54,921 bases of DNA. Origin: Actinomycetota bacterium. Its GTDB lineage: Bacteria; Actinomycetota; Geothermincolia; Fen-727; Anoxymicrobiaceae. The notes beneath the pieces are model-generated. The model did not search any database. It was not told the origin of the DNA and worked only from the letters and a program-made list of their open reading frames with translations. Below, one piece after another: positions 39,273-54,723 of the stretch (positions are counted from its first letter, which is position 1; each line of letters opens with the position of its first letter). Where the stretch lies: the NCBI GenBank assembly GCA_016927325.1, contig JAFGMY010000079.1:1-54921 (forward strand), read 5' to 3'. Both the position numbers and the translations under genes were made by a program.

Positions 39273-39404
39273 GCCGCGAATTTCCTTGTGAATTCCTGCC
39301 ATATGGGTAATTTTCCATTATTAACTAATAATAATGTCATATTATATACATTATTATTGATAGTAGTGTTTATTGGGGATTAAGGGAAAAGGCCTGATTT
39401 CCGA

Positions 39405-39433
39405 CTCATTAAATATCGGCAAGATACCGATAA
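39405..39433 (+). promoter_or_regulatory. Putative sigma-28-type promoter (weak -35)
   Basis: CTCATT-N15-ACCGATAA, same spacing as three sites in the pil locus. Confidence 0.4.
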
Positions 39434-39439
39434 CAAGTA

Positions 39440-39619
39440 ATGGGAAGAGCAACCTTTCGTGCTTTTGGAGGTAGTATAGCTGATTTCCGTGAAGATAGTA
39501 TGCGAGGCATGTTTAGAGTGCTAAATGATGATAACACGGAGGGGGTTGCGATCGCTGGAAACAACGGTGGCGCGGTTTCATCTTTGGATTTGCAGACCTT
39601 ATTAAGGAGGGGCTGTTAA
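39440..39619 (+). CDS. Possible leaderless 59-aa small ORF
   Basis: ATG 6 nt after the putative -10; MGRATFRAFGGSIADFREDSMRGMFRVLNDDNTEGVAIAGNNGGAVSSLDLQTLLRRGC; no recognisable family. Confidence 0.25.
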   Translation: MGRATFRAFGGSIADFREDSMRGMFRVLNDDNTEGVAIAGNNGGAVSSLDLQTLLRRGC

Positions 39620-39864
39620 AGGCCGCGGTTTCCCCGCACTGTGCCGGGAAAAGGGGCCTCGAAAGAACTTTGTATGGGTGAGACGGCGCGGAGACCGGCT
39701 AATGGAATGGCCGGTTATTCAACAGTAGCCAGTGAAAATGCAGCTTGAATCAGGGCTGCTCCATAGACAAAAAAGCAAGGATGGACAGGGCAATGGTAGA
39801 AGTAAGAAAATGCGCCGGGTAACTTTCGAGGGCGGAACAGAAGGGGGAATTATTGACCCGGCCC

Positions 39865-39875
39865 TGTGATAAAAT
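39865..39875 (+). promoter_or_regulatory. Extended -10 promoter upstream of the roadblock gene
   Basis: TGTGATAAAAT (TRTGnTAAAAT) about 110 nt before the start codon. Confidence 0.5.
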
Positions 39876-39985
39876 TGAATTGAAGAAGCGTCGCATTACT
39901 TGACGGAAAAGTAAAATAGCAATATTTGACAATTTCCTGATTCAATATAAGAGAATGGTTGCGGAGGATCACTTAGGAGGCGCAC

Positions 39986-40384
39986 TTGGACGGTGCGAAG
40001 AGGAACGAACTTCAGGAGGCTTTGGAGCAGCTCCTGGAAACATCCAAGGATATTGAAGCTGCGGCCGTGGTAAGCATGGACGGATTTCCAATGGCTTCAA
40101 TAATTCCTGAGGGATATGAAAGTGAAAGGCTGGGCGCAATGTCCGCGGCTCTATTGAGCCTTGGTGAAAGAACGGCGAATGAGTTAAAGCGCGGTGAGTT
40201 GGCCCAGGTCTTCGTTGAAGGTTCCCAGGGGTATGTCTTTGTTCTTGCCGCGGGTGAAGATACGGTATTGACGGCTGTGGTGAAACGCGGCGGAAAGCTG
40301 GGAATGGTCCTCTACGATATTCGCAAAACGGCGAAACGGGTAGCTGGGATTGCAGGGTCTCATCTACAGGCCGAAGTCGAGTAA
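39986..40384 (+). CDS. Roadblock/LC7 (MglB-like) protein
   Basis: IEAAAVVSMDGFPMAS, RLGAMSAALLSLGER, GELAQVFVEG..GYV; AGGAGG SD. Confidence 0.92.
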   Translation: MDGAKRNELQEALEQLLETSKDIEAAAVVSMDGFPMASIIPEGYESERLGAMSAALLSLGERTANELKRGELAQVFVEGSQGYVFVLAAGEDTVLTAVVKRGGKLGMVLYDIRKTAKRVAGIAGSHLQAEVE

Positions 40385-40399
40385 ATTAACGGGGTACAA

Positions 40400-43300
40400 A
40401 TGCCGCTAAAGGGAAACCTAAAAGATTTCAGCCTTCCCGATTTATTTCAATTGATTCATTTCGGGAAGAAAAGTGGCAAGCTTACCATCTCGAGAGGTGA
40501 CATAGAAGGATATGTGTGCTTCCGGGATGGTGATGTGACTTACGCCACCCATAATACGAATAAAGTATTGATAGGTCAGCTGCTCGTGCGCGCACGGGTT
40601 GTAACCGACAAGCAGGTCGCGGAAGCTCTTGAGCTGCAGAAGACGGTACACAAGGACAAGCTGATAGGCAGCATCCTGGTGGAGCTCAAATACATTACGG
40701 ATGAAACGCTCGAGCTCTTCATCAAGGAGCAGATAAAGGAATCGGTATTTAATCTGCTGATGTGGAATGACGGAGCTTTCGATTTCGATCCCGACGATAA
40801 GCTCGAAGAGGACATCGGCGTTTCAATGGGTGCGGAAGAGCTCATCCGGGAAAGCAGGAAGCGTCTCGGCGAATGGATGGATATCGAAAGCAGGATCCCG
40901 ACGCTTGATGCGATTTTCTCCAAGACTTCCGCTGGAAAGAAAAATCCGGAAAGGCTGAAAATACCGGAAGAGGAGGTATTGACCCTTGAATACATTGACG
41001 GTACGAATACCGTCAGGGATATCGCCAGGCAGAAGGGTGAGCCGGCTCTCGAGACATGCAAATCCATCAGCAACCTCGCTGGCGCAAAACTCATCAAGCT
41101 GGTAGGTGAGAAGGGTGGCGAATCAGGTGGATCGGCGGAAACTCTTCAAGAAGAAATCGATTTTTATGAGGAAGAGTCCGCTACGCTGACTGAGACAAAG
41201 CCGCCTGATGAGGGAACACTTGAGTATTATAAATGGCTCGCGCTCCAGGAAGCCATGAACTGTGAAAGAGTAGGTATTTTCAAGGCGGCGGCCCGCGAAA
41301 AGGTAAGCGAGGAAGGACCCTTAGTCGTAAAAGAAGCACCGGAAGACAACTCGTCAAAGGCTGAAGCTGAAGAAGTTGAAGAGGAAGAAGAAGTTGGGGT
41401 AATAAAGAAACTGGTCATTGACGGGTTGGAGAAACCGGAAGATTTCGCTGTCGACTGGTCCGACGACCTTATCGGGATGCTGGACAAAGAAAAAGCTGAT
41501 GATGAGATAAGTGAAAGCATAAGAGCGAACCATGTCGATCTGGATGAAAAAGATGACTTAATCGGAATTTCGCTGGAAGGCTTCGAAGATATGGTGCCGG
41601 AAAAAGACCTGGCCGATGAGGGACTCAGAGGGCCCCTGACCGGTGAGACTCTTGATGACGGGGGCTCTTCTCTTCTCTCCGAAGAGGACATCGAAAAGCT
41701 TATGGGTTTGAAATCAAAGCCAAGAGAAGAAATGAGCCGTGAGGAGTTGCTCACTTTTGACCAGCCAACTTACCCGATTATTGAACCGATGCCGGGCGAG
41801 CGTGATGAACTCTCAGTTGAGGAAGAAGTTGCGCGCGAAGAAGCTGACTCCATGGAGGAAAGGGCCAGGAAAGTGCTGGCCGAGATAATGGAGGGCAGGG
41901 AAGGAAGGGAAGACTACACTTTCGATTCACAGAAGGAACAGGAAGAGGAAGATAAAGCGGAGACCTATTCTCTGGAGGAACTATCAGACATTTTCGAGGA
42001 TGGATCGGAAGCCGGGGAAGAAGAGGTTGTCAAAACCGAGGTTGAAGAAGTAGTCGTTGAAGCTGCGGAAGAAGAGTATTTGGATTCAGGTCGGGAGGAA
42101 TACGCGGTAGCGGAAACGGCGGCGGAAGTTGCAGAAGAAGAGCCGGTTGAGGTTGAAGAAGAGGTCCCGGTGATAGAGGTTGACAAGGAAGTCACCGGAG
42201 TTGAGCTTGAGGCGGAAACCGAAGAAGATTCTCTTGAATATTACAAGAAGCTTGCTCTGGAGAACGATACGGAGATACTAGACGCGGAGTTCGTGGCTGA
42301 CGGAGAAACCGCTGAAGAGATAATAGCTCCGGAAAAGATCATTAGAGAGGTTGAAGCTGAGGTTGAGGAAGAGGCAGCTGAAGAGGAGACAGTTGAAGAA
42401 GTAGCTGAAGCAGCGGATGAAGAAGTCGCCGAAGGTGAGCCCGAGGAAGAAGTCGCCGAGGTTGAGGAGGAAGTCGCCGAAGCTGAGCCCGGGAAAGAGA
42501 CAGCTGAAGAGGAAGCGGCCGAAGAAATAGCCGAAGCTGAGGAGGAAGTTGTTGAAGCTGAAGCAGCGGAGGAAGTCGCCGAAGCTGAACCCGGGAAGGA
42601 GACAGCTGAAGAGGAAGCGTCCGAAGAAATAGCCGAAGCTGAGGAAGAAGTCGCCGAAGCTGAGCCCGAAGAAGGAGTCGCCGAAGCTGAGCCCGGGAAA
42701 GAGACAGCTGAAGAGGAAGCGGCCGAAGAAATTGCCGGGATTGAGGAAGAAGTTGTTGAAGCTGAAGCAGCGGAGGAAGTCGCCGAAGCGGAAGCCGCCG
42801 GGACTGAGGAAGAAGCTGCTGAAACAGCAGGAGAAGTCGCCGAGGTCGAGGTTGAGGCTGAGGCAGTTGAAGAAATAGCTGAAGCAGCGGAGGAAGTTGC
42901 CGAAGCTGAACCCGGGAAAGAGACAGCTGAAGAGGAAGCAGCTGAAGAAATTGTCGGGACTGAGGAAGAAGTTGTTGAGGCAGCGGAGGAAGTTGTTGAA
43001 GAGGACACCGCCGAGGAAGTTGAAGAAATAGCTGAAGCAGTGGAAGAAGAAGTTGTTAAAGCTGAAGTAGCGGAAGAAGTCGCCGAGGTTGAGGTTGAGG
43101 AAGATGCGGCCGAAGAGGAAGCAGTTGAAGAAATAGCCGAACCCGGGGAAGAAGTCTCCGAGGTGGCGGAGGAAGTTGCCGATATGCTTGATGAGCTGGA
43201 GAGCCTTGAAGCGGAAGAGTCGGCTGAAGAGAATGAAATCCAGGGCCGTGTTATTCAGTTCGATAAAGCATCCACAAAACAAGATCAGGACGAAGATGTG

Positions 43301-44662
43301 CTTATTATCGTCCAGGAGGAAAGCGAACCACGCGTCAGGTTGGATGAGATGCCCGAGGCGGCCGCTCTTGAGCTGGAGATCGATTCAGAGGAGGAGTCGC
43401 CGGAAGAGGCTCTGGATGATATAGGAAGCGCTCTGGAGATGAGCGAAGAGCTCATGGATGAAACGGAAATACCGCTTGTTTTTGATGAGAGTGGTTCGTC
43501 TGTTGAGATGGAAGATGCTGAAGCGGAAAAGGCTGCCTCGGAAGATGAGGAAGAGGAGCTTGTGATAGAGGGATTGGAGGAGTCGCCGGGGGATTTGATT
43601 CCGGAACACAGTGAATCATCACCCGATCTTGCCGAAGTCATAGATATTACGGGTACAGACAAGACAAAAGTCCCGGAGGATGAAGTGGCGGAAGTCCTGA
43701 CCGGGATTTCCCCTGCAGAAACCGAGATCGCCGCCGCCGAAGAGGAAAGCGATACAGCACAAGCCGACGTTGAAGCTTCAACTCATGAGGCCGAAGCACA
43801 GGTTATTCCGGAAGAGGAGACCGCCGAAGAAGTAAGTGAAGTTTTTACTGAGGCGCTCGAGCCCGAAACCGCTTATCCGGAAGAGGAGTTGGCCACAGAA
43901 GCGGTGGAAGAGGAAGAAGGGGCCGGTGCGCGGTATATCAAGACGGAAGAACCGGCAGCGGAAACCGTTGAGCAGCCGGAAGCCGGAGAGCCGGCCGCAG
44001 CTTTGGAGGAAATGGCGGCCGACATGGTTCCGGAGCCGACTGCATATGAAGAAGATGAAATGCCGGCACAGGCGCCGGTTGAGGATATAACTGATGAACT
44101 GCAGGCAGGGGGTGTGGTTGTGGCGGTGGAAGAGCCGGGCATCGGCACCGACGAACTTGCTGAAATCACTGGTGGGTACTCCCTTCCCCAGGGCGAGACA
44201 GGCAGTGCCGAGATGGAAGCCGTCGTGTCGGACGGTGCGGAAACCGGAGAGGATGAAGAAGAGGAGTGGGAAGAGGAGTACGAAGAAGAAGAGTATGAGT
44301 ATGAGGATGAAGAGGAAGAGATCGGGGAAGAGGTCGAGCAAGAGATTGAGGAAGTGGAAGAGGAGTACGAGGAAGAAGCTGAAGAGCCTGGACTATTTGA
44401 TTCAATGCGGGTGAGGGGCAAGAGGGACGCGGGAACGAGTTTACTGGATCTGGAGACCCTTGAACTCGAACAGGAGTTAAAAGACCTGGTAGGTATACCA
44501 CAGACACAGAAGAAGAGAAGGCCTGTTGATGCGGATGAAGCAGGTGATAAAGGTAAGAAAAAGGAAAAGAAGAGCAGAGGATTCATGTCCCGCGGCAGAG
44601 GCCGCAAGGAGGTCAACAAGGGATCAGGTGAGAAGACTGTAAATGACCTGGATGAGTTCTAG
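40400..44662 (+). CDS. DUF4388-domain protein with about 1150-aa acidic low-complexity region
   Basis: MPLKGNLKDFSLPDLFQLI..GKKSGKL...VFNLLMWNDGAFDF is DUF4388-like; followed by a small wHTH-like segment, then Glu/Ala/Val-rich repeats and a basic C-terminus. Confidence 0.85.
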   Translation: MPLKGNLKDFSLPDLFQLIHFGKKSGKLTISRGDIEGYVCFRDGDVTYATHNTNKVLIGQLLVRARVVTDKQVAEALELQKTVHKDKLIGSILVELKYITDETLELFIKEQIKESVFNLLMWNDGAFDFDPDDKLEEDIGVSMGAEELIRESRKRLGEWMDIESRIPTLDAIFSKTSAGKKNPERLKIPEEEVLTLEYIDGTNTVRDIARQKGEPALETCKSISNLAGAKLIKLVGEKGGESGGSAETLQEEIDFYEEESATLTETKPPDEGTLEYYKWLALQEAMNCERVGIFKAAAREKVSEEGPLVVKEAPEDNSSKAEAEEVEEEEEVGVIKKLVIDGLEKPEDFAVDWSDDLIGMLDKEKADDEISESIRANHVDLDEKDDLIGISLEGFEDMVPEKDLADEGLRGPLTGETLDDGGSSLLSEEDIEKLMGLKSKPREEMSREELLTFDQPTYPIIEPMPGERDELSVEEEVAREEADSMEERARKVLAEIMEGREGREDYTFDSQKEQEEEDKAETYSLEELSDIFEDGSEAGEEEVVKTEVEEVVVEAAEEEYLDSGREEYAVAETAAEVAEEEPVEVEEEVPVIEVDKEVTGVELEAETEEDSLEYYKKLALENDTEILDAEFVADGETAEEIIAPEKIIREVEAEVEEEAAEEETVEEVAEAADEEVAEGEPEEEVAEVEEEVAEAEPGKETAEEEAAEEIAEAEEEVVEAEAAEEVAEAEPGKETAEEEASEEIAEAEEEVAEAEPEEGVAEAEPGKETAEEEAAEEIAGIEEEVVEAEAAEEVAEAEAAGTEEEAAETAGEVAEVEVEAEAVEEIAEAAEEVAEAEPGKETAEEEAAEEIVGTEEEVVEAAEEVVEEDTAEEVEEIAEAVEEEVVKAEVAEEVAEVEVEEDAAEEEAVEEIAEPGEEVSEVAEEVADMLDELESLEAEESAEENEIQGRVIQFDKASTKQDQDEDVLIIVQEESEPRVRLDEMPEAAALELEIDSEEESPEEALDDIGSALEMSEELMDETEIPLVFDESGSSVEMEDAEAEKAASEDEEEELVIEGLEESPGDLIPEHSESSPDLAEVIDITGTDKTKVPEDEVAEVLTGISPAETEIAAAEEESDTAQADVEASTHEAEAQVIPEEETAEEVSEVFTEALEPETAYPEEELATEAVEEEEGAGARYIKTEEPAAETVEQPEAGEPAAALEEMAADMVPEPTAYEEDEMPAQAPVEDITDELQAGGVVVAVEEPGIGTDELAEITGGYSLPQGETGSAEMEAVVSDGAETGEDEEEEWEEEYEEEEYEYEDEEEEIGEEVEQEIEEVEEEYEEEAEEPGLFDSMRVRGKRDAGTSLLDLETLELEQELKDLVGIPQTQKKRRPVDADEAGDKGKKKEKKSRGFMSRGRGRKEVNKGSGEKTVNDLDEF
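42470..42951 (+). repeat. About 102-bp (34-aa) coding tandem repeat
   Basis: Unit starting GAAGTCGCCGAAGCTGAGCCCGGGAAAGAGACAGCTGAAGAGGAAGC (EVAEAEPGKETAEEEA) recurs at 42470, 42572, 42674, degenerate at 42776, and at 42893. Confidence 0.85.
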
Positions 44663-44677
44663 AAACTTGGAGGTTGT

Positions 44678-45217
44678 TTGGATCGTATCTACAAGATCCT
44701 CGTTGCCGGTCCCTTCAATTCCGGAAAGACGACGTTTATCAGTTCCATAAGCGATATAGATGTCGTGTCCACTGAGCGCGATACCGGGGTTGGTAAGAAA
44801 AAGTGCGGGACGACCGTAGCCATGGATTTCGGCCGTATCGCACTCAAGGGTGGGAATGTCATGCATCTGTACGGCACTCCCGGCCTCAAGCGTTTCGATT
44901 TCATGTGGGAAGTGCTCTCCGGAGGCATTCTGGGGTATGTGCTCCTGATTGATGGAACGAGGCCTTCTACCCATGAGAAAGCCCGGTCGGTTCTGGAGTC
45001 TTTTGAGGGCAAGCTGGAAGTCCCGGTAGTGGTCGGGATTACGAGATCCGACCGCCGGAACTGCATGGGCCCCGCGAAAGCAAGAGAAAAATTGGGCCGG
45101 AGCGACCTCGAGATTATCCCCTGCGATGCACGGAGAGTGCAGGACGTAAAAGCTGTTCTTGTCGCGTTGCTGGACAAAGTAAAGGAACAAGAGGGGACGG
45201 TCCGAAGGGTCGTTTGA
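44678..45217 (+). CDS. MglA/CvnD-like small Ras-superfamily GTPase (ATP_bind_1 type)
   Basis: G1 GPFNSGKTT, G2 TTVAMDFG, G3 LYGTPGL, RFDFMW, G5 CDAR. Confidence 0.9.
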   Translation: MDRIYKILVAGPFNSGKTTFISSISDIDVVSTERDTGVGKKKCGTTVAMDFGRIALKGGNVMHLYGTPGLKRFDFMWEVLSGGILGYVLLIDGTRPSTHEKARSVLESFEGKLEVPVVVGITRSDRRNCMGPAKAREKLGRSDLEIIPCDARRVQDVKAVLVALLDKVKEQEGTVRRVV

Positions 45218-45235: not shown

Positions 45236-46102
45236 ATGCACATAGATGGTGATACACGGCTTGCGGGTATTATTGGGAACCCCCTCCATCACACGATGTC
45301 GCCCGCCTTGCATAACGCCGCATTTGATTATCTTGGCTTGAATTGGTGTTATATTCCATTTCCGGTTGAGAGGTCATCGGTAAAAGAAGCTGTTGAGGGA
45401 ATGAAGGCGCTGGGTTTAGTCGGCTTGAATGTAACGATGCCGTTCAAAACCGAAGTTATACCGCTGCTGGATGAAGTGGCGGTTTTCGCCGAGACGGTAG
45501 GCGCGGTAAATACAATTCTGCTGGATAAGGGAAAGCTGATCGGCTATAACACCGACGGAAGGGGTTTCTACACCGCACTCGCCAAAGACCTCGGATACGA
45601 GGTTAAAGGCCGGAAAGTGCTGGTAATGGGTGCCGGTGGAGCCGCGAGGAGCGTTACCGTTTCACTTGCTCTGGCGGGGTGCGCCTCGATTACAATTCTT
45701 AACAGGTCGCTTGAAAAGAGTGAGCGGCTGGTGGGGATCATATCAAAGAGCGCGCCCGGTGTCCGGGTTGCATGTCTGAGGCCTGACGAGGATTACGATA
45801 TGGTGGTTGCGGAGTCGGACATTATTATTAATGCTACTCCCATTACCAATTTCAACGGTTCCGTTCTGAGGGTGCCGGTGTCAATGTTGAACAGGAATCA
45901 ACTGGTATGTGATCTGAATTATACAGTTTATCAACCACCGTTTCTTCAGGAAGCCTCCGCGAGAGGGGCGCGCGTGATAGACGGCAAGGGCATGCTGCTC
46001 TATCAGGCCGCGGCGGCGTTTGAGATATGGACGGGTCTGGAAGCGCCGGTCGAAGTGATGCGGATGGCACTGCTCAGGGCACTGGAGGAGGCCCGCATTT
46101 GA
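45236..46102 (+). CDS. aroE: Shikimate dehydrogenase
   Basis: HTMSPALHN, NVTMPFK, GAVNT, NTDG, GAGGAA, MLLYQAA. Confidence 0.96.
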   Translation: MHIDGDTRLAGIIGNPLHHTMSPALHNAAFDYLGLNWCYIPFPVERSSVKEAVEGMKALGLVGLNVTMPFKTEVIPLLDEVAVFAETVGAVNTILLDKGKLIGYNTDGRGFYTALAKDLGYEVKGRKVLVMGAGGAARSVTVSLALAGCASITILNRSLEKSERLVGIISKSAPGVRVACLRPDEDYDMVVAESDIIINATPITNFNGSVLRVPVSMLNRNQLVCDLNYTVYQPPFLQEASARGARVIDGKGMLLYQAAAAFEIWTGLEAPVEVMRMALLRALEEARI

Positions 46103-46149: not shown

Positions 46150-47850
46150 ATGGAAAAACCGAAACAGGACCGCCTGGGCCAGCTACTTCTGGAAAACAAC
46201 ATATTGACAGTGGAGCAACTGGAAGCCGCCCTTCAGGAACACCAGAAGACAGGCAAGTCACTCGGTCGTGTTCTGGTGGATTTAGGGATGTTATCGGAGG
46301 GAAAGCTTACTGCGGTCCTGGCGGCTCAGATAGGGATCCGTTTTATCGATATCGGCACATACAAAGTAGATCCCGCCGCCGCCACACTGATAGACGATTC
46401 ACTTGCCAGGAGGCATTTCGCATGTCCTATTGATTTTGACAACGGCAGGCTTGTGGTCGCAATGGTAGACCCTACCAACGTTTATGCTCTCGACGACCTG
46501 CGGATAACCACCGGCATGGAGATTCTCCCCGTTATCAGCACCAAGAATGATATAGAGGCGGCCATAGGCAGGTATCTGCACAGTAGCTCCGATATGGACG
46601 AGGCGTTCGATGAAATTCCTTCTCTGGAGGGTGAGGGTGATGAGGGGGAAGAAAATTCAGAGGCGGAACTCCGTGAAGCGGGCGAAGACGCACCCATTGT
46701 AAAGTATGTGAATCTCATAATTACCGAGGCTGCAAATGAAAAAGCCAGCGACATCCACATTGAACCAGGTGAAAAAGACGTCCGGATACGCTATAGAATT
46801 GACGGCGTACTCCACGAAATTCGAAGGTCGCCCAAGAGAATCCACCCGGGGCTGGTGTCCAGGCTGAAGATTATGGCGAGCATGAATATCGCGGAGAGGA
46901 GGGTCCCCCAGGACGGAAGGTGCGCGGTAATGGCGGGAGACAAGGAAATCGACCTTAGAATCGCTTCACTGCCGACCGTGCACGGAGAGAAGGTGGTTTT
47001 GAGACTCCTGGACCGTTCATCGATATTGATATCCCTGAGCGACCTCGGTATCCTTCCGGAACCCCTGAAGCTGTTCAGCGATTCTTTCCATAAACCTTAC
47101 GGAACGGTCGTCGTAACCGGACCTACCGGTTCCGGAAAGACTACCACGATGTATGCCGCCCTTTCCGAGCTCAACAAGCGGGAGGTCAACGTCATCACCG
47201 TTGAAGACCCCGTTGAGTACCAGATGTCCGGGATAAACCAGGTACAGGTGAACACCAGGGTAGGGTTGACGTTCGCCGCGACGTTGAGGTCCATATTGAG
47301 ATGTGACCCCGACATTGTCATGATAGGTGAGATCCGTGATGGCGAAAGCGCGAAGATGGCGATCGAATCCGCCCTTACGGGTCACCTCGTTTTGTGCACC
47401 CTCCACACCAACGACGCTCCGTCGGCGATGACCCGTTTGACTGAAATGGGCGTTGAACCTTTCCTGATCGCGTCCGCTGTTGACAGCATTGTCAGCCAGA
47501 GACTCGCCAGGCGTCTCTGCAGAAGGTGTAAACAGCCGGCTGAATACGAAAAGGAGTACCTTCAGAAAATAGATTTTTATTCCGAAGATGAAGAGGAAAT
47601 TGAAATATTCAGGGCGAATCCTAACGGGTGTCCTTTCTGCAACGGTGCGGGATATCGCGGGCGGGTTGGCGTGTACGAAGTCCTTGTGGTCGATGAAGAA
47701 ATTGAGAAGATGGTAGTCGACATGGCTACGGCGCGCGAGATCGGGCAGGAGGCAAGGAGAAGAGGAATGTCCACTCTGCGGGAGGATGGTTTTCACAAAG
47801 TCAAGCAGGGAATTACATCAATTGAAGAAGTATTAAGAGTGGTAATGTAA
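46150..47850 (+). CDS. pilB: Type IV pilus assembly ATPase PilB with MshEN domain
   Basis: ASDIHIEP, RYRIDGVL, GPTGSGKTT, EDPVE, GEIRD, TGHLV..TLHTN, tetracysteine CRRC/CPFC. Confidence 0.96.
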   Translation: MEKPKQDRLGQLLLENNILTVEQLEAALQEHQKTGKSLGRVLVDLGMLSEGKLTAVLAAQIGIRFIDIGTYKVDPAAATLIDDSLARRHFACPIDFDNGRLVVAMVDPTNVYALDDLRITTGMEILPVISTKNDIEAAIGRYLHSSSDMDEAFDEIPSLEGEGDEGEENSEAELREAGEDAPIVKYVNLIITEAANEKASDIHIEPGEKDVRIRYRIDGVLHEIRRSPKRIHPGLVSRLKIMASMNIAERRVPQDGRCAVMAGDKEIDLRIASLPTVHGEKVVLRLLDRSSILISLSDLGILPEPLKLFSDSFHKPYGTVVVTGPTGSGKTTTMYAALSELNKREVNVITVEDPVEYQMSGINQVQVNTRVGLTFAATLRSILRCDPDIVMIGEIRDGESAKMAIESALTGHLVLCTLHTNDAPSAMTRLTEMGVEPFLIASAVDSIVSQRLARRLCRRCKQPAEYEKEYLQKIDFYSEDEEEIEIFRANPNGCPFCNGAGYRGRVGVYEVLVVDEEIEKMVVDMATAREIGQEARRRGMSTLREDGFHKVKQGITSIEEVLRVVM

Positions 47851-47882: not shown

Positions 47883-48959
47883 GTGGAAAGCAAGGCTTTA
47901 AGACTTGATATCAACGAGTTGCTCAAGGAGGTTTTGGAAAGAGGGGCATCCGACCTTCATCTAACCGTTGGCGTTCCACCCGTTCTGCGCATAAACGGTG
48001 TTCTACAGAGAATGGACCTCCCAAAAATGACCAGCAACGATACTCGCGATCTGGTTTACAGTATTCTCACAGCCAGGCAGAGGGAAGCCCTTGAAAGCAA
48101 TCTCGAGTTTGACCTCTCCTACTCGGTTCCCGGCAGCGCAAGGTTCAGGGTAAACGCGTTTTTCCAGCGCAACAGCGTGGGCGCGGCGTTCAGGATAATC
48201 CCGTACCGCATCAAGACGGTGGAGGAGCTCAGGCTGCCTCTTATTATCAAGGAATTCGCGCGCCTTCCCAGAGGTTTTGTGCTGGTTACCGGGCCGACCG
48301 GCCAGGGTAAATCCACCACGCTCGCGACTATAGTGGATCTCGTGAACTCGACAAGGGAAGAGCATATCATTACCGTCGAGGACCCGATAGAGTTTCTTCA
48401 TGTACACAAGAAATGCATTGTGAACCAGAGGGAAGTGGGTTCGGACACCCACTCTTTCGCAAACGCCTTGAAGTTTGTGTTGAGACAGGACCCCGACGTC
48501 ATACTGATCGGCGAAATGCGTGATCTGGAGACGATATCGACCGCTCTTACCGCGGCTGAAACCGGACACCTGGTATTCGCTACACTTCACACACAGGACG
48601 CCCCGCAGTCTATTGATAGAATTATTGACGTATTCCCGACTTACCAGCAGCAGCAGGTGAGGCTGCAGCTCTCCACCACGCTCCAGGCGATCGTGACACA
48701 GCAGTTGGTACCCACCAAAGACCGCAGGAGCAGGGTTGCGGCTTGTGAGATCATGATAGCCACTGCAGCGATTAGAAATATGATACGCGACGGGAAAGTC
48801 CATCAGATCTATTCCGCGATGCAGGCTGGAGGTCAGCTCAGGATGCAGACCATGGATGCGTCGCTCGCCTCGCTGTTCCGTGCCGGGCAGATTACCTTTG
48901 AGACGGGGCTGGCCAGGTCGCACAACAAGGATGACTTCAGAAGGCTTGTCGGCCAGTAA
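47883..48959 (+). CDS. pilT: Type IV pilus retraction ATPase PilT
   Basis: ASDLHL, GPTGQGKSTT, EDPIEF, NQREVG, AAETGHLV, AIRNMIRD. Confidence 0.96.
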   Translation: MESKALRLDINELLKEVLERGASDLHLTVGVPPVLRINGVLQRMDLPKMTSNDTRDLVYSILTARQREALESNLEFDLSYSVPGSARFRVNAFFQRNSVGAAFRIIPYRIKTVEELRLPLIIKEFARLPRGFVLVTGPTGQGKSTTLATIVDLVNSTREEHIITVEDPIEFLHVHKKCIVNQREVGSDTHSFANALKFVLRQDPDVILIGEMRDLETISTALTAAETGHLVFATLHTQDAPQSIDRIIDVFPTYQQQQVRLQLSTTLQAIVTQQLVPTKDRRSRVAACEIMIATAAIRNMIRDGKVHQIYSAMQAGGQLRMQTMDASLASLFRAGQITFETGLARSHNKDDFRRLVGQ

Positions 48960-49070: not shown

Positions 49071-50291
49071 TTGACTACAGAATTTTCATATACGGTCAGG
49101 GACAAAGCCGGCAAGGAAATAACCGGCACCCTGGAAGCTGACAACGCGGACGTTCTCGCAGGCAAACTGAGCCAGATGGGGTATACGGTTGTCGCCATCG
49201 ATGAAATCAAGCAGTCGCTTGGAAAAAAGGAAATCAGAATCTTCGGGGCAAAGAAGGTGGAGAGCCATGAAATAGTTATTTTCACCCGGCAGTTCGCCAC
49301 CATGATCAACGCCGGCCTTCCTCTGATCAAGTGCCTGAGCATTCTCGCCCAGCAGACGGAGTCCACTTCTCTTTCCGATATAATCGCCGAGTGCCAGAAA
49401 GATGTCGAAGCGGGGCACTCGCTTTCGGATGCCCTGGCGAAGCACCCCAAGGTCTTCCAGAGGTTGTACGTCGCGATGGTACGTGCCGGAGAACTCGGCG
49501 GTATGCTGGATGACGTGCTGCTCAGGATAGCGAACCAGCTGGAGCGCGAGGAGGAGATAAGGCACAAGATCAAGTCCGCGCTTACTTATCCAATCGCCAT
49601 TGGTGCTATAACACTGATGCTGATGGGATTGATGATTTTTTTCGTCGTTCCGAAGTTCGCGGCCATGTTCGCGCAGATGGGGGGCTCACTTCCGGCTTTC
49701 ACCCAGTTTCTTGTCAATATCAGCCATTTCGCGACTGGCATCGGGGGGCTGATTCTGGTGATAGTAATTATAGGCCTGGTCATCGCTTTCAGACGCTTCA
49801 AGGCCACCGATACGGGGCGTTACACGATTGACAGGATTAAGCTGAAGATGCCTATTGTCGGTGTACTCTTTCACAAGAACGCCCTGTCAAAGTTTTCGAG
49901 GACCCTCGGAACACTGCTTTCATCAGGTGTTCCAATACTCGGGGCTCTTGAGATCACCGGTGAAACAACCGGGAATATGGTTGTCACCAAGACCCTGGAG
50001 GACGTCAGAGAGAGCGTCAAAGAGGGTGAGACTATCGCCAAGCCGCTTTCACAGTCGAAGGTGTTTCCACCGATGGTTACCCAGATGATAGCGATAGGTG
50101 AAGAGACCGGAGCGCTTGATGTCATGCTTTCAAAAGTGAGCGATTTCTACGACTCGGAGGTCAACTCGGCGGTTGACAGCTTGACCTCAATGCTGGAGCC
50201 GGTCATGATGGTTGTCCTTGGCGGGGGCGTCGGGACCATCGTGGTCGGTCTGTATCTGCCTATATTCCGTGTCATAACAATGATCAAATAA
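49071..50291 (+). CDS. pilC: Type IV pilus platform protein PilC (T2SS-F family)
   Basis: FTRQFATMINAGLPL, AGELGGML, ALTYP, IGEETGALD, LEPVM, LYLPIF. Confidence 0.96.
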   Translation: MTTEFSYTVRDKAGKEITGTLEADNADVLAGKLSQMGYTVVAIDEIKQSLGKKEIRIFGAKKVESHEIVIFTRQFATMINAGLPLIKCLSILAQQTESTSLSDIIAECQKDVEAGHSLSDALAKHPKVFQRLYVAMVRAGELGGMLDDVLLRIANQLEREEEIRHKIKSALTYPIAIGAITLMLMGLMIFFVVPKFAAMFAQMGGSLPAFTQFLVNISHFATGIGGLILVIVIIGLVIAFRRFKATDTGRYTIDRIKLKMPIVGVLFHKNALSKFSRTLGTLLSSGVPILGALEITGETTGNMVVTKTLEDVRESVKEGETIAKPLSQSKVFPPMVTQMIAIGEETGALDVMLSKVSDFYDSEVNSAVDSLTSMLEPVMMVVLGGGVGTIVVGLYLPIFRVITMIK

Positions 50292-50404: not shown

Positions 50405-50761
50405 ATGAGAAAACTACTTAGCAGGTCAGAGGGATTCACCCTGATTGAGCTCATGATTGTAATCCTGATTATCGCAATCCTAGTAGCTATCGCGGTTCCT
50501 GTTTTCCTGAACGCAAGGGCAAACGCCCAGAAAAGGACATGTCAGGCGAACCAGAGGACTATCGACAGTTCAATCCAGAGCTATGAGTCGACTCTGACCG
50601 ATCCGGCGTATCCAGCTTCGTTGGCTGATATGACGATGCCTGGAACGAAGACGCTGAAGAATATTCCGAAGTGTCCGGCACACGATACAAACCAGTACAC
50701 ATATGTTAACAGTATTCCGCCTTATGTAGTGTGTCCTAATGATTCTGGACACACAATATAG
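50405..50761 (+). CDS. pilA: Type IV pilin (probable major pilin)
   Basis: Class III signal MRKLLSRSEG/FTLIELMIV with Glu5; perfect AAGGAGGTG SD; own promoter and a downstream hairpin. Confidence 0.92.
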   Translation: MRKLLSRSEGFTLIELMIVILIIAILVAIAVPVFLNARANAQKRTCQANQRTIDSSIQSYESTLTDPAYPASLADMTMPGTKTLKNIPKCPAHDTNQYTYVNSIPPYVVCPNDSGHTI

Positions 50762-50822: not shown

Positions 50823-50933
50823 ACGATATTGGGAACAGTTTTCTGGCACGCACCGTATCTGGACGAATCCTGCTGACGTGAAAAACAGTTCATGGTGGGT
50901 TCGCTTCACATGCGTCGGGGGTGTGAGTTGATA

Positions 50934-51287
50934 ATGAATAAAATGGCTTTCAGGGTGGAGGGTTTTACATTAATCGAGCTTATGATCGTCATACTGATAA
51001 TAGCAATCCTGGTAGCTATCGCGGTTCCTGTTTTTCTGAGTGCAAGGGCCAACGCCCAGAAAAGGACTTGCCAGGCGAACTTAAGGACGGTCGACGGATG
51101 CGTCCAGAGCTACTCTGCCAGCTTCGGAGCAACTGTGTATCCAGCACGTCTTTCAGATATGATCGAGCCTGGAACCAGGCTGATGAAATCCGATCCCATG
51201 TGTCCGGCAGGGGAGATGGACTACCTGTGGATAAGCTCAGAGCCGCCTCATATCTCGTGTCCAAACGAAACCGAACACACAATTTGA
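50934..51287 (+). CDS. Second type IV pilin, paralog of pilA
   Basis: MNKMAFRVEG/FTLIELMIVILIIAILVAIAVPVF; N-terminal helix nearly identical to the first pilin. Confidence 0.9.
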   Translation: MNKMAFRVEGFTLIELMIVILIIAILVAIAVPVFLSARANAQKRTCQANLRTVDGCVQSYSASFGATVYPARLSDMIEPGTRLMKSDPMCPAGEMDYLWISSEPPHISCPNETEHTI

Positions 51288-51348: not shown

Positions 51349-53643
51349 TTATTCGTCAGTTGTTGAAGAACCGTTGTCTTCCAGTTTTTGACGGGCCGAA
51401 GGTCCGTAAGCTCCGGTTTTATCCAGTTCTATAACCTTCACGTATTTTGTTTGTGCTTCTCTTGGCCGTCCCAGACCAGTGAGAGTATCACCATACACGA
51501 GGTAAGCTTTCGCGTTCCCCGGGTCCATTTCGACCGCCTTTTCAATCTCGCGGAGAGCCGCGGGGAAGTTGCCTGCCATATTCAAGACTTCCGCGAGATC
51601 GATGTAATAACTTACCGTGTCCGGCTTAAAAGCTATTAGCTTGTCGAGTTCCGCTATCGCCTGCGGATACCGGCCGGTTGCCGTGTATGCCATGGCAAGG
51701 CTCGGGGAAAGGAAGTCGGGGTCGATCTTACGGGCACCGGGGAGTATCCGGACCGTTTCTTCATAGTTTTCTTCCTTGTTGAGAGACAGGCCGAGAAGCT
51801 CAAAAGCGTTTGAGAATGTGTTGCAGCTGTACAGGGTGGGAACGTAGATGTTTTTCATGAACTTTTCAATGGTGTCTTCATAAACCGAGGTTGCCTCCGG
51901 GAGCATTTTCTTCGACAGAAGAACATTGGCTTTGAACAGCATCGGAAGAAGCACCGATTCGCGGGCGTCGGTGTCCACGTTTTCACTGAAACTGCCTTTA
52001 TTGGAGTATTTCGCGGCTGTGTTGTTGTTCAAATCCGGCTCAACGCCCGGAGGTAAGATGCGGACGAGGTACCCAGACCAGGAAACGTTCCAGTTGAACT
52101 CCACAAAATTGCTTACAGCAGAAAACATATTAAGGAATCCCAGGTTCCTTTGCACGATATTAATGTAATCGAGGGCCGCCGGGTCGGGCTTGTGCCCGGT
52201 ACGCGTTCTTAAAAGGAGATCCGAACCTCGAAAACCCGGGACTGTTGTCGCTTCGGGTATCACAAGCCGGGCCTCCGGATTTACTCCCTCGACCGTCTGC
52301 ATGTACATGCAGGGAAAGAAAATGTTGTCGTCCTCGAAGAATACGATTGATTCGGGGCCCGCAGTATCCAGTATATCCCGGGCCATATCCTCTGCGTAAG
52401 TGTAGCGGCTCTTGTCGATCTTGCCGTAGTGGATCAAACATGAAACCACCGGGCAAAGGGCAAGGATAAAAATGACCGATACGAGTGAGGCCTTTCCCGC
52501 GGCTTTCCATGCCGTGTGCTTGAAAGATCCGGCCATTTTCACGGCCCCGGCTGCGGCGAAGCCGATCCACAGCGAAAATATCATGTAGCTGGGATAGTAG
52601 AAATGGGCCCTCAACACCGGCTCCAGCTGGCTGTAGGTCATTACCGGCAAAAGGGCGAGAATGAACAGAAACAGGAAGAACAACGGGTACTTCCTGCGCT
52701 TGTCGAACACAGAGTAGATAAATCCGGCGCCCCCCAGCCAGGCGAAGTACGGGAACTCGGTGTTGAGTGTTCCGAAGTATCGCCAGAAACGTGATGGCAG
52801 GTAAAGATAGGGGTATTTAAAGAGACCGCTTCTCTGGTGGCGGAATGTGACATGCTCAAACCATCGGGCGGGGGTGGAAGGGTCTCCGTAGTTATAGGCG
52901 GGGCCGCGGAAAGCGGCTGCTGGTTCGTAAATGTAAGGTAGAAGGCCGAGTGCAAGAAACGCCGCCATTCTAAGCAGGTTGCGGGGCGCGAGTGCGTCTT
53001 TCCAGCTTGTGTCAATGAAGAAGAAGACGAACGCGGGCAGCAGAAACAGGGTCGTTATGTGATTGGATATGGCCAGCCCGAAACTGAAAGCGAAGAGACA
53101 GAGAATATTGTCGGCTTTTTTCCTGTTTTCATCCTTGATGGAGCTTTCCCACTTGAGTGCAAGGAGAATGAGAAGTGCCATGAAGAATGTATTCAGGCTG
53201 TAAGTCTCGGGGATCACGGTCTGGTACCAGTAGGAGTAGCTGAATGAGAAGGCCAGCGCTCCAACGATTCCACCCGTGCGGCTCCGGTAAATCCTGAAGA
53301 TTATGAGGTACATCAGGCATGCGGTAAGCGAAGCGAAAAGGCCGGAGTACAAGCTTACCCTGAACGCCAGGGGGCCTACGGGGAAGAGCAGGGTGAAAAG
53401 CCTGGCGGTAATCATATACAACGGAGAGCCGGGGCCGTGGATGTTGCCGGTGGTGGCAATACCGAGAAGGAAGTCTCCCGAATCGGAAAACGTGACGGTC
53501 CGTGCCGCAGGCAGAATATGAAGGATAATGGTTAGAATGAACAAAAAGATTAGTATAAGACGGTTGTCTATGTTCCCGCCGGGGAAAGCAGCCGCCTTGA
53601 TTTTCTTGAAGTCTGAAATGGAGGCACTCTTTATTTTCAGCAT
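51349..53643 (-). CDS. DUF2723 / TMEM260-like GT-C membrane glycosyltransferase with C-terminal TPRs
   Basis: DSGDF acidic motif after TM1, IHGPGSPLY, WYQTVIPETYSL, AISNH, YNYGDP, DNIFFP..YMQ; many TM helices; TPR-like C-terminus. Confidence 0.8.
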   Translation of the reverse strand: MLKIKSASISDFKKIKAAAFPGGNIDNRLILIFLFILTIILHILPAARTVTFSDSGDFLLGIATTGNIHGPGSPLYMITARLFTLLFPVGPLAFRVSLYSGLFASLTACLMYLIIFRIYRSRTGGIVGALAFSFSYSYWYQTVIPETYSLNTFFMALLILLALKWESSIKDENRKKADNILCLFAFSFGLAISNHITTLFLLPAFVFFFIDTSWKDALAPRNLLRMAAFLALGLLPYIYEPAAAFRGPAYNYGDPSTPARWFEHVTFRHQRSGLFKYPYLYLPSRFWRYFGTLNTEFPYFAWLGGAGFIYSVFDKRRKYPLFFLFLFILALLPVMTYSQLEPVLRAHFYYPSYMIFSLWIGFAAAGAVKMAGSFKHTAWKAAGKASLVSVIFILALCPVVSCLIHYGKIDKSRYTYAEDMARDILDTAGPESIVFFEDDNIFFPCMYMQTVEGVNPEARLVIPEATTVPGFRGSDLLLRTRTGHKPDPAALDYINIVQRNLGFLNMFSAVSNFVEFNWNVSWSGYLVRILPPGVEPDLNNNTAAKYSNKGSFSENVDTDARESVLLPMLFKANVLLSKKMLPEATSVYEDTIEKFMKNIYVPTLYSCNTFSNAFELLGLSLNKEENYEETVRILPGARKIDPDFLSPSLAMAYTATGRYPQAIAELDKLIAFKPDTVSYYIDLAEVLNMAGNFPAALREIEKAVEMDPGNAKAYLVYGDTLTGLGRPREAQTKYVKVIELDKTGAYGPSARQKLEDNGSSTTDE

Positions 53644-53799: not shown

Positions 53800-54723
53800 T
53801 TGACCTGGTTTTATTATCTGGTTGCGGCGGGCTTCGGCCTTATACTCGGCAGCTTCTTCAATGTTTGTATCTACAGGATACCGATCGGGATGACCCTGGG
53901 TGACAGGTCTATTTGCCCCCACTGCGGCGCCGGTGTCAAATGGTATGATAACGTGCCGCTTGCAAGTTTTGTCGCCCTCCGGGGCAAATGTCGTAGCTGT
54001 AAAGGCCGGATCTCGTGGCGCTACCCGCTGGTAGAGGCCTTGAGCGGCGCCTTGTTTGCCTCCACTTACTGGTGGAGCATTAATGTCGTCCCGGATTACC
54101 TGGGGGTAGAAGGCGGTCCGTTCGTGCCCGAGCTTCTGATCGGCCTGCTTTTTATCTCAATATTGCTGATAGTCGCGTTTATTGACTATGACCACGGCAT
54201 TATCCCGAATGTGGTGATTATTCCAGGCGCGGCCGCCATGTTTTTTCTTGTGGTCGGAGTATCCATATATAGAGAAGATCCGATCAGGATCGCACAGGCT
54301 GCGGCTACCGGTATACTGTTCGCCGTGTTTCTATTCTTAATCGGCTTGATTGTCGGAACCGCGGTATTGAAGGGTGCCGAGCAAGAAGAGGCAGACAGTA
54401 AAGAAGATGTGGGCCCCTTCAGGTACAGTGAAAAGCATTGTAAAGATGATGACAACGGGGAAGAGGAGGAAGACGAACTGCCGCTGGCACTCGGTTTCGG
54501 CGACCTTAAACTTGCGTTGTTCATGGGTCTTGCCCTCGGGTATTTCAACTGGTTTTTTATCCTTGTCGCTGTCATCACCGGTTGTGTTTTGTCATTAATA
54601 ATTGCCATAATTTACCAGATTCCAGGAAGAAAAAAAATTACTTTTGGACCGTTCCTTGCTGTTGGATCCATTGTGGCCCTTTACTGGGGGCCATACTTCT
54701 ATCAGTTGCTCTTTCACTATTAA
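53800..54723 (+). CDS. pilD: Prepilin peptidase/N-methyltransferase (A24)
   Basis: GSFFNVCIYRIP, SICPHC, GKCRSC, catalytic FIDYD and GFGDLKL, FGPFL. Confidence 0.95.
   Translation: MTWFYYLVAAGFGLILGSFFNVCIYRIPIGMTLGDRSICPHCGAGVKWYDNVPLASFVALRGKCRSCKGRISWRYPLVEALSGALFASTYWWSINVVPDYLGVEGGPFVPELLIGLLFISILLIVAFIDYDHGIIPNVVIIPGAAAMFFLVVGVSIYREDPIRIAQAAATGILFAVFLFLIGLIVGTAVLKGAEQEEADSKEDVGPFRYSEKHCKDDDNGEEEEDELPLALGFGDLKLALFMGLALGYFNWFFILVAVITGCVLSLIIAIIYQIPGRKKITFGPFLAVGSIVALYWGPYFYQLLFHY

Follow-up and report, generated by a model that had tools for sequence, protein, structure and literature searches.

Can a small GTPase of the MglA family still act as a switch when the glutamine of its GTPGQ motif reads leucine, and is such a leucine real? 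The question is raised by a gene of an uncultured sediment actinobacterium, and it is followed here through the window, by which we mean the whole stretch of DNA that was analyzed, 54,921 nucleotides in length. The original prediction, made from the letters of this DNA alone, held that the protein is constitutively on, is a pseudo-GTPase scaffold, or needs a catalytic residue supplied in trans by its roadblock or DUF4388 partner, and that its nucleotide specificity may be altered.

The GTPase gene, its family, and its fold

The gene lies at 44678 to 45217 on the plus strand, stop codon included, and encodes an MglA-family small GTPase of 179 amino acids. Its TTG start codon is 4 nt past a GGAGG sequence (44669–44673) and 15 nt past the stop codon of the gene for a 1420 amino acid PATAN protein, and 18 nt separate its end from aroE. 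In Pfam the protein matches PF03029 (E 5.7e-13, 49.7 bits with a cut-off of 27), with weaker matches to Ras, Arf, and MMR_HSR1, and in NCBIfam it matches the general small_GTP domain alone, under its cut-off. The best relative of solved structure, found with a GTPase profile built from 60 homologues (alignment A1), is MglA of Thermus (3t12_A, E 2.4e-13); in this profile alignment the family sequence GtPGq lies over TVPGQ of MglA, the Thr-Thr pair over R53-T54, and D50 over the Mg ligand D58, and Leu70 of the window protein stands at the site of the catalytic Gln. AlphaFold2 predicts the structure with confidence (pLDDT 85.3, pTM 0.82), and Foldseek ranks highest a complex of M. xanthus MglA with GTP-gamma-S and MglB (6izw_A, E 1.4e-11, TMq 0.71), a Ras-like fold closest to MglA being found by the structure search and the profile search alike. 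An MglB-like roadblock gene is on the same strand and one gene away, the PATAN gene lying between the two. By its motifs the protein is an MglA-family Ras-like switch of the GTPGQ/Thr-Thr type, which is that of Groups 2 to 5.

The gene is single-copy in its genome, which is 82% complete (1 match among 7 scored candidates), and with the GTPase as query no Gln-bearing paralogue was found in this 82% complete assembly. The genome of one relative, G006, has three GTPase matches on separate contigs (C117, C148, and C278), and the copy L003 has Gln.

Nucleotide-binding motifs

The P-loop (G1) reads GPFNSGKT (residues 11–18, 44708–44731, plus strand), which agrees with GxxxxGK[ST], and A1 shows no variation at its G11, G16, or K17. 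In G2 (T45-T46, 44810–44815, plus strand) T46 is the G2 threonine, and T45 stands before it at the site of the Group 1 MglA Arg finger, with no such Arg finger present; this Thr-Thr pair is found in 120 of 120 proteins (the best 120 of 3525 homologues). PMC4316618 describes GTPGQ as common to MglA Groups 2 to 5, with Thr replacing the Arg finger. The GTPG core of G3 (residues 66–69, 44873–44884, plus strand) is there in the window protein, position 66 being Gly in 144 of 151 family representatives (the query and 150 others, clustered at 50% and aligned), and the Gln of GTPGQ is replaced. Rereading of the open reading frame confirmed GTPG-L-KRF, the codon at the G3 Gln site being CTC (Leu70, 44885–44887, plus strand) and the protein reading LYGTPG-L-KRFD. 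G4 is TRSD (ACG AGA TCC GAC, residues 122–125, 45041–45052, plus strand), and G5 is CDAR (residues 149–152, 45122–45133, plus strand).

The G4 had been put forward as a second peculiarity of this protein, and while TRSD was read correctly, it is not special to it. Among the nearest 66 homologues (within the best 120 of 3525), TRxD is found in 61 and CDAR in 60, and among the next 54, NKxD is found in 53, generally without a DAR-type G5. Across the 151 family representatives G4 is highly variable, with NKQD in 26 and many instances of TKxD, THxD, TRxD, and NRxx. According to PMC4316618, the G4 of MglA Groups 2 and 3 deviates from [NT]KxD and is accompanied by an unusual DAR G5, the Arg of which may take over from the Lys of G4, and CvnD9, a Group 2 protein, is a proven GTPase. 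The window protein likewise combines a deviating G4, in which Thr and Asp are retained and Arg stands in for Lys, with a DAR-type G5. Because the specificity Asp is kept (Asp125, present in at least 90% of A1), the Lys is conservatively replaced by Arg, and TRxD occurs throughout the clade, the suggestion of an altered base specificity is unsupported and we reject it, so that the G4 half of the finding is ordinary. Orthologues of family f6 in the same class (L020–L030) read TRIG, TRIP, TRVP, or TRMP at G4, the fourth residue being neither Asp nor Glu.

Rarity and reality of Leu70

The norm that had been assumed for the family, GTPG-Q-xRF, is borne out wherever position 70 was counted. Gln is found in 114 of the best 120 of 3525 homologues (the window protein counted), which include all 58 proteins of the sister group and all 54 Chloroflexi-type homologues, and Leu is found in six: the window protein, P0002, P0003, P0004, P0011, and the 112 amino acid fragment P0060. 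Gln is also found in 29 of 29 relatives' loci (29 of 37 matches having been read), in 80 of 80 metagenome loci of the Chloroflexi type with 45 to 51% identity, and in 133 of the 151 family representatives, the others having His or Glu (three each), Leu (two, one being the query), Met, Gly, or Ala (two each), or Ser, Tyr, Asp, or Asn (one each). The GTPase is matched in 45 of 51 species genomes of the same class, none of them with more than 60% identity to the window protein. No Leu-clade locus was among the 80 metagenome loci returned, and the other Leu-clade proteins sit on contigs of 694 to 1780 nt. Literature searches turned up no account of a natural Leu variant among MglA-family proteins, and nothing on Gln mutants was found in PMC13621833.

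An assembly or sequencing error in the metagenome-assembled genome was considered as the source of such a codon. Of the contig pieces from one DNA run, possibly the source run, four were placed on the window, leaving 44872–45091 uncovered, and two RNA runs from that study contained next to none of the window's sequence words. The Gln codon of the relatives is CAG in 27 of 29 cases and CAA in two, and CTC is two positions away from each; on the route from CAG through CTG to CTC the first step replaces the amino acid and the second is silent. The same Leu is found in five further metagenome proteins, which differ in sequence and belong to different records, and the Leu proteins, being 62 to 82% identical to one another, come from different organisms. 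Given the two-nucleotide difference and these five proteins, an error is very unlikely, and the earlier judgment that a single misread base is unlikely to account for the codon holds.

The origin of Leu70 was examined in a quick tree of 71 proteins, which comprised 65 of the first 66 homologues (the fragment P0060 was dropped) and, as outgroup, six of the 54 distant ones. The five full-length Leu proteins are separated from the rest by a branch whose SH-aLRT is 99, their stem measures 0.48 changes per site and a terminal branch 0.42, and the nearest outgroup of the GTPase is an Anaerolineae "ATP/GTP-binding protein" with NKQD. As judged from this tree and the alignments, Leu70 is a natural replacement that is fixed in a small clade, with one origin and subsequent retention, and the 62 to 82% identity among its members means that Leu has been kept over a long divergence. 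An alignment of orthologues had been proposed as a check on whether Leu70 and TRSD are conserved in the clade; the first is fixed in the small Leu clade, whereas TRxD is distributed more widely.

Three residues that are conserved in the 58 Gln sisters are changed in the Leu clade (E26D, D58G, and Q70L), and others are changed in part: W77 to Leu or Phe in four of six, M84 to Val or Ile in five of six, S113L in five of six, and A172E in four of five. More clade-specific residues are found at positions 57, 95, 128, 134–148, and 166–172, and the changes cluster in the β2-β3 turn (K57, G58), in switch II (W77, M84), in 134–148, and in the C-terminal helix (166–172). Compensation in cis for the lost Gln was considered and rejected, as the scan of residues found only in the Leu clade gave no obvious catalytic substitute; in particular, comparison of the Leu clade with its Gln sisters revealed no clade-specific polar residue gained near the site. 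In P0011, a member of the Leu clade, the switch I stretch RKISQEAERIKSQTT is closer to the Chloroflexi-type homologues than to its own clade, a likeness that could come from recombination or convergence.

The same comparison bears on the proposal of a pseudo-GTPase or decaying gene, in which nucleotide would not be used and the protein would be a scaffold at most. The long stem and terminal branches fit this proposal, as does the loss of neighboring regulatory genes that is described below, but the reading frame is open and full length, and the AlphaFold2 model predicts a confidently folded protein. Moreover, all five full-length Leu proteins, divergent as they are, preserve G1, G2, GTPG, G4 (TRxD), and G5 (CDAR), so that none of the five has lost a G1, G2, or G4 residue, which is the loss that defines a pseudo-GTPase. 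We therefore regard a pseudo-GTPase scaffold as very improbable.

A roadblock-PATAN-GTPase module beside pilus genes

The gene order in the window is alaS, ruvX, mltG, a gap of 714 nt, roadblock, PATAN/DUF4388, GTPase, aroE, pilB, pilT, pilC, two pilin genes, and pilD. The roadblock/LC7 gene (rb1, 39986–40384, plus strand; PF03259, E 2.3e-17) encodes an MglB-like protein that keeps the MDG motif and is 69 to 75% identical to rb1 of the relatives; it is the sole roadblock gene found, with one match in the whole 82% complete assembly. It is followed by the gene for the 1420 amino acid PATAN protein (40400–44662, plus strand), which matches PF14332 (DUF4388, which is the PATAN domain) over residues 4–159 with E 3.1e-28. 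This protein consists of the N-terminal domain, an acidic repeat linker of about 1100 amino acids that is rich in Glu, Ala, and Val and includes 102-nt tandem repeats at 42412–42978, and a conserved basic C terminus that is 44 to 56% identical to that of the relatives, whose PATAN proteins have about 1130 to 1220 amino acids, so that the giant acidic linker is a class-wide feature. Downstream of the GTPase gene are aroE (45236–46102, plus strand), pilB (46150–47850, plus strand), pilT (47883–48959, plus strand), pilC (49071–50291), two pilin genes with the prepilin N terminus FTLIELMIV (50405–50761 and 50892–51287), a gene on the minus strand for a membrane/TPR protein of 764 amino acids (51349–53643), and the prepilin peptidase gene pilD (53800–54723). 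A search of Rfam over the whole window gave no matches.

Gaps of 15 nt separate the roadblock gene from the PATAN gene and the PATAN gene from the GTPase gene, and the three are probably co-translated. This arrangement would suit a mechanism in which the roadblock dimer or the PATAN protein supplies the missing catalytic residue in trans and normal cycling occurs only within the complex. There is precedent of a kind, in that the Gln-less Group 1 Rup GTPases have been proposed to obtain a Gln in trans (PMC4316618) and RapGAP gives an Asn thumb to Rap (PMC2265111). However, the MglB partners of Groups 2 to 5 have no conserved candidate beyond an Asp-Gly pair, according to PMC4316618, Arg mutants of the roadblock GAP MfpD keep their GAP activity (PMC9769811), and rb1 of the window shows no new clade-specific polar residue tied to the site. 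The roadblock of the window keeps the published Asp-Gly pair, and no candidate for the residue that had been envisaged was found, which leaves supply in trans with a small chance.

The complex of the GTPase with the PATAN N-terminal domain (window 40400–41119), predicted with GTP and Mg, had a score of 0.01 (mark 0.32; controls not folded), which speaks neither for binding nor against it. Residues 58–131 of the PATAN protein (window 40571–40792; 2614–2814 in the relative locus L039) resemble the N-terminal region of PilB, with 35% identity over 74 residues in L039. In Synechocystis, PATAN regulators bind the pilus ATPase PilB1, according to a preprint (10.1101/2021.06.11.447907), and the resemblance fits the association of PATAN with GspE_N presented there.

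Loss of an upstream block in the window

The order rb1-PATAN-GTPase-aroE-pilB-pilT is the same in all 10 of the relatives' loci that were fetched. In the eight of these that reach upstream, a second roadblock gene (rb2) and a ferredoxin gene precede rb1 without exception, and most of them also carry NiFe hydrogenase subunits and a V4R-like ORF before rb1. The block lies between mltG and rb1 (L031–L036, L038, and L040) in the order V4R-like, NiFe hydrogenase small and large subunits, 4Fe-4S ferredoxin, and roadblock2; the hydrogenase of L033 matches PF00374 (E 6e-17) and PF01058 (E 3.2e-21), and the V4R-like ORF matches PF02830 with E 0.052, under the cut-off. This class-wide module, V4R-like-NiFe hydrogenase-ferredoxin-roadblock2-roadblock1-PATAN-GTPase followed by aroE-pilB-pilT, is new here. 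The family f6 loci L035 and L036 have three roadblock paralogues each.

Beside the upstream-reaching relatives, the window is the only locus without the stretch that runs from the V4R-like gene to roadblock2; the non-coding gap of 714 nt (39273–39985) stands there instead. The gap contains no ORF of at least 60 amino acids, no remnant of the relatives' block that tblastn could detect, and no promoter or terminator signal above that of shuffled sequences. Hydrogenase and rb2 queries had no match in the window genome (82% complete); rb2 is certainly absent from its usual place, and a copy could lie elsewhere, in the unassembled part of this genome.

The genes that remain next to the gap have diverged as well. 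The N-terminal domain of the PATAN protein is 48 to 52% identical to that of six relatives' loci of the same family (f1), as against 76 to 95% within those loci. A comparison is provided by locus L040, which is as distant from them as the window in aroE and pilB: identity to the family f1 loci is 69 to 75% for rb1 of the window and 77 to 86% for that of L040, and for the PATAN N-terminal domain it is 48 to 52% and 68 to 77%, respectively, whereas for the GTPase the difference is slight (54 to 59% and 57 to 62%). In the window, rb1 and the PATAN N-terminal domain have thus diverged beyond what is expected from aroE, pilB, and pilT, and on these identities the whole module is best described as remodeled in the window's lineage. 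That Leu70 goes along with a missing rb2 and missing hydrogenase genes is seen in one genome.

Possible consequences of Leu70 for the GTPase cycle

That the protein is hydrolysis-dead and locked in the GTP state had been extrapolated from Ras and from Group 1 MglA. In the case of Group 1 MglA, Q82A loses both intrinsic and GAP-stimulated hydrolysis and keeps MglB binding, as for Q82L of M. xanthus (PMC3199381 and PMC6785124). The extrapolation is nevertheless unsafe, as two other precedents are contrary to it. Among proteins of the GTPGQ/Thr-Thr groups, MfpB is the only one that was found in the literature to have been tested, and its Q89A mutation leaves intrinsic and MfpD-stimulated hydrolysis both unchanged (PMC9769811). 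The other is kappaB-Ras1, which with its natural Leu65 still hydrolyzes GTP, L65Q being without effect (PMC12314375).

The explanation that we tentatively favor, at a strength somewhat short of probable, is that the protein binds nucleotide and acts as a switch within a rewired module, its cycle being slowed or less responsive to a GAP. The protein would be a real switch GTPase, by its gene apparently expressed, that forms a module with the roadblock and the giant PATAN protein upstream of aroE-pilB-pilT. The G3 Gln would have become Leu once in the lineage, from CAG through CTG to CTC, and would then have been kept while the nucleotide-contacting motifs stayed intact. Because these motifs are intact, binding of guanine nucleotide and Mg2+ is most likely retained, and because Gln is so strongly constrained elsewhere, its replacement should matter; the GTPase cycle of the protein would then most likely be altered, most probably in that hydrolysis is slower, less readily stimulated by the roadblock, or both, giving a long-lived GTP (ON) state. 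The lineage also appears to have lost rb2 and the hydrogenase, V4R-like, and ferredoxin genes and to have strongly remodeled the PATAN N-terminal domain, suggesting the possibility that the switch has been rewired and has lost part of the coupling to its normal input, with an output that may be pilus-related. Points that could tell against this explanation are the MfpB Q89A and kappaB-Ras1 precedents, the GTPase itself being hardly more diverged than that of the comparably distant L040, and the association being that of one genome.

We favor a changed cycle over near-neutrality, in which Gln would not be catalytic in the GTPGQ/Thr-Thr groups and Leu70 would tune switch II or the contacts with a partner or effector. 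Near-neutrality is a possibility of the more doubtful sort. It accords with the MfpB mutant, with the lack of the MglA Arg finger in Groups 2 to 5, for which a distinct hydrolysis mechanism has been predicted (PMC4316618), with the 18 of 151 family representatives that have a residue other than Gln at position 70, and with the additional changes of the switch II neighbors W77 and M84 in the Leu clade. On the other hand, the retention of Gln in 114 of the best 120 of 3525 homologues and in 29 of 29 loci suggests that its role is important, a degraded P-loop or G2 is found in several of the representatives without Gln, which may be inactive forms, and a single Ala mutant of a single distant paralogue is a thin precedent for Leu, which is bulkier than Ala. 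A further and unlikely version of the history is that an MglA-type switch has been locked ON throughout the clade, the sensor block and the second roadblock having been lost and the Gln given up, so that a timer driven by signals would have turned into a nucleotide-bound, constitutively acting factor in type IV pilus assembly.

Significance of the Leu clade

Many GTPase families are known in which the catalytic Gln has been lost naturally, so the protein described here is a useful variant and no surprise in kind. Judged from its sequence and neighborhood, it is a rare, lineage-specific Gln-to-Leu variant of a known family within a pilus-associated switch module. Its use lies in the unsettled mechanism of hydrolysis in the GTPGQ/Thr-Thr branch (conservon CvnD/MfpB and the PATAN-linked Group 5), which has no Arg finger and for which the one published Gln mutant, MfpB Q89A, had no effect (PMC9769811). 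A long-lived Leu clade beside its Gln relatives provides a natural pair of proteins that may help to distinguish whether the Gln acts in catalysis, in contact with a GAP, or in the structure. Having been lost concurrently, roadblock2 and the hydrogenase block would stand out as genes with a functional tie to the GTPase cycle, and if the switch were locked ON, the window would represent a natural experiment on which parts of an undescribed hydrogenase-roadblock-PATAN-GTPase pathway belong together.

Comparison with known systems

The HAS or K+-activated TEES GTPases (MnmE, FeoB, EngA, Era, and YqeH) resemble the window protein in having a hydrophobic residue at the Gln site and an Asn in the P-loop. 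They are recognized by two conserved Asn residues, one in GxxNxGK[ST] and one five residues past the P-loop Lys (PMC3466195). The second is Ser22 in the window protein, the first, Asn14, is found in 46 of the 151 family representatives and is not conserved in the family, and the HAS proteins belong to a different branch of the superfamily; membership of this group and its K+-dependent mechanism is rejected.

A closer likeness at the site itself is that of kappaB-Ras1 and kappaB-Ras2, which have a natural Leu65 at the Gln61 site with the remaining G motifs present, and which are described in PMC12314375 as constantly loaded with GTP and yet able to hydrolyze it slowly. They differ in lineage and in partners, and the comparison is one of analogy only.

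Group 1 MglA of M. xanthus and T. thermophilus, together with MglB, shares with the window protein the Ras-like fold, the roadblock partner, and the link with type IV pilus motor genes, and its laboratory mutants Q82A and Q82L, which are hydrolysis-dead and retain MglB binding (PMC3199381), are at the position of Leu70. It differs in having the Arg finger R53 and TVPGQ where the window protein has Thr and GTPGL, and in its G4 and G5.

With MglA Groups 2 to 5 (PMC4316618; CvnD9 and MfpB, of the Group 2 conservon, being the tested members), the window protein has in common the Thr-Thr G2, the GTPG core, and an adjoining MglB-like roadblock. The actinobacterial conservon of Group 2 (CvnA-D, Mfp) was considered for the locus and rejected, as there is no CvnA-type kinase, no CvnC/DUF742 gene, and no extra ORF between the neighbors, and the G4 of Group 2 is NxFD, unlike TRxD in the window protein. 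The deviating G4 combined with a DAR-type G5 is a likeness to Groups 2 and 3, and what sets the window protein apart from the published description of Groups 2 to 5 is the Leu that it carries in place of the Gln of GTPGQ.
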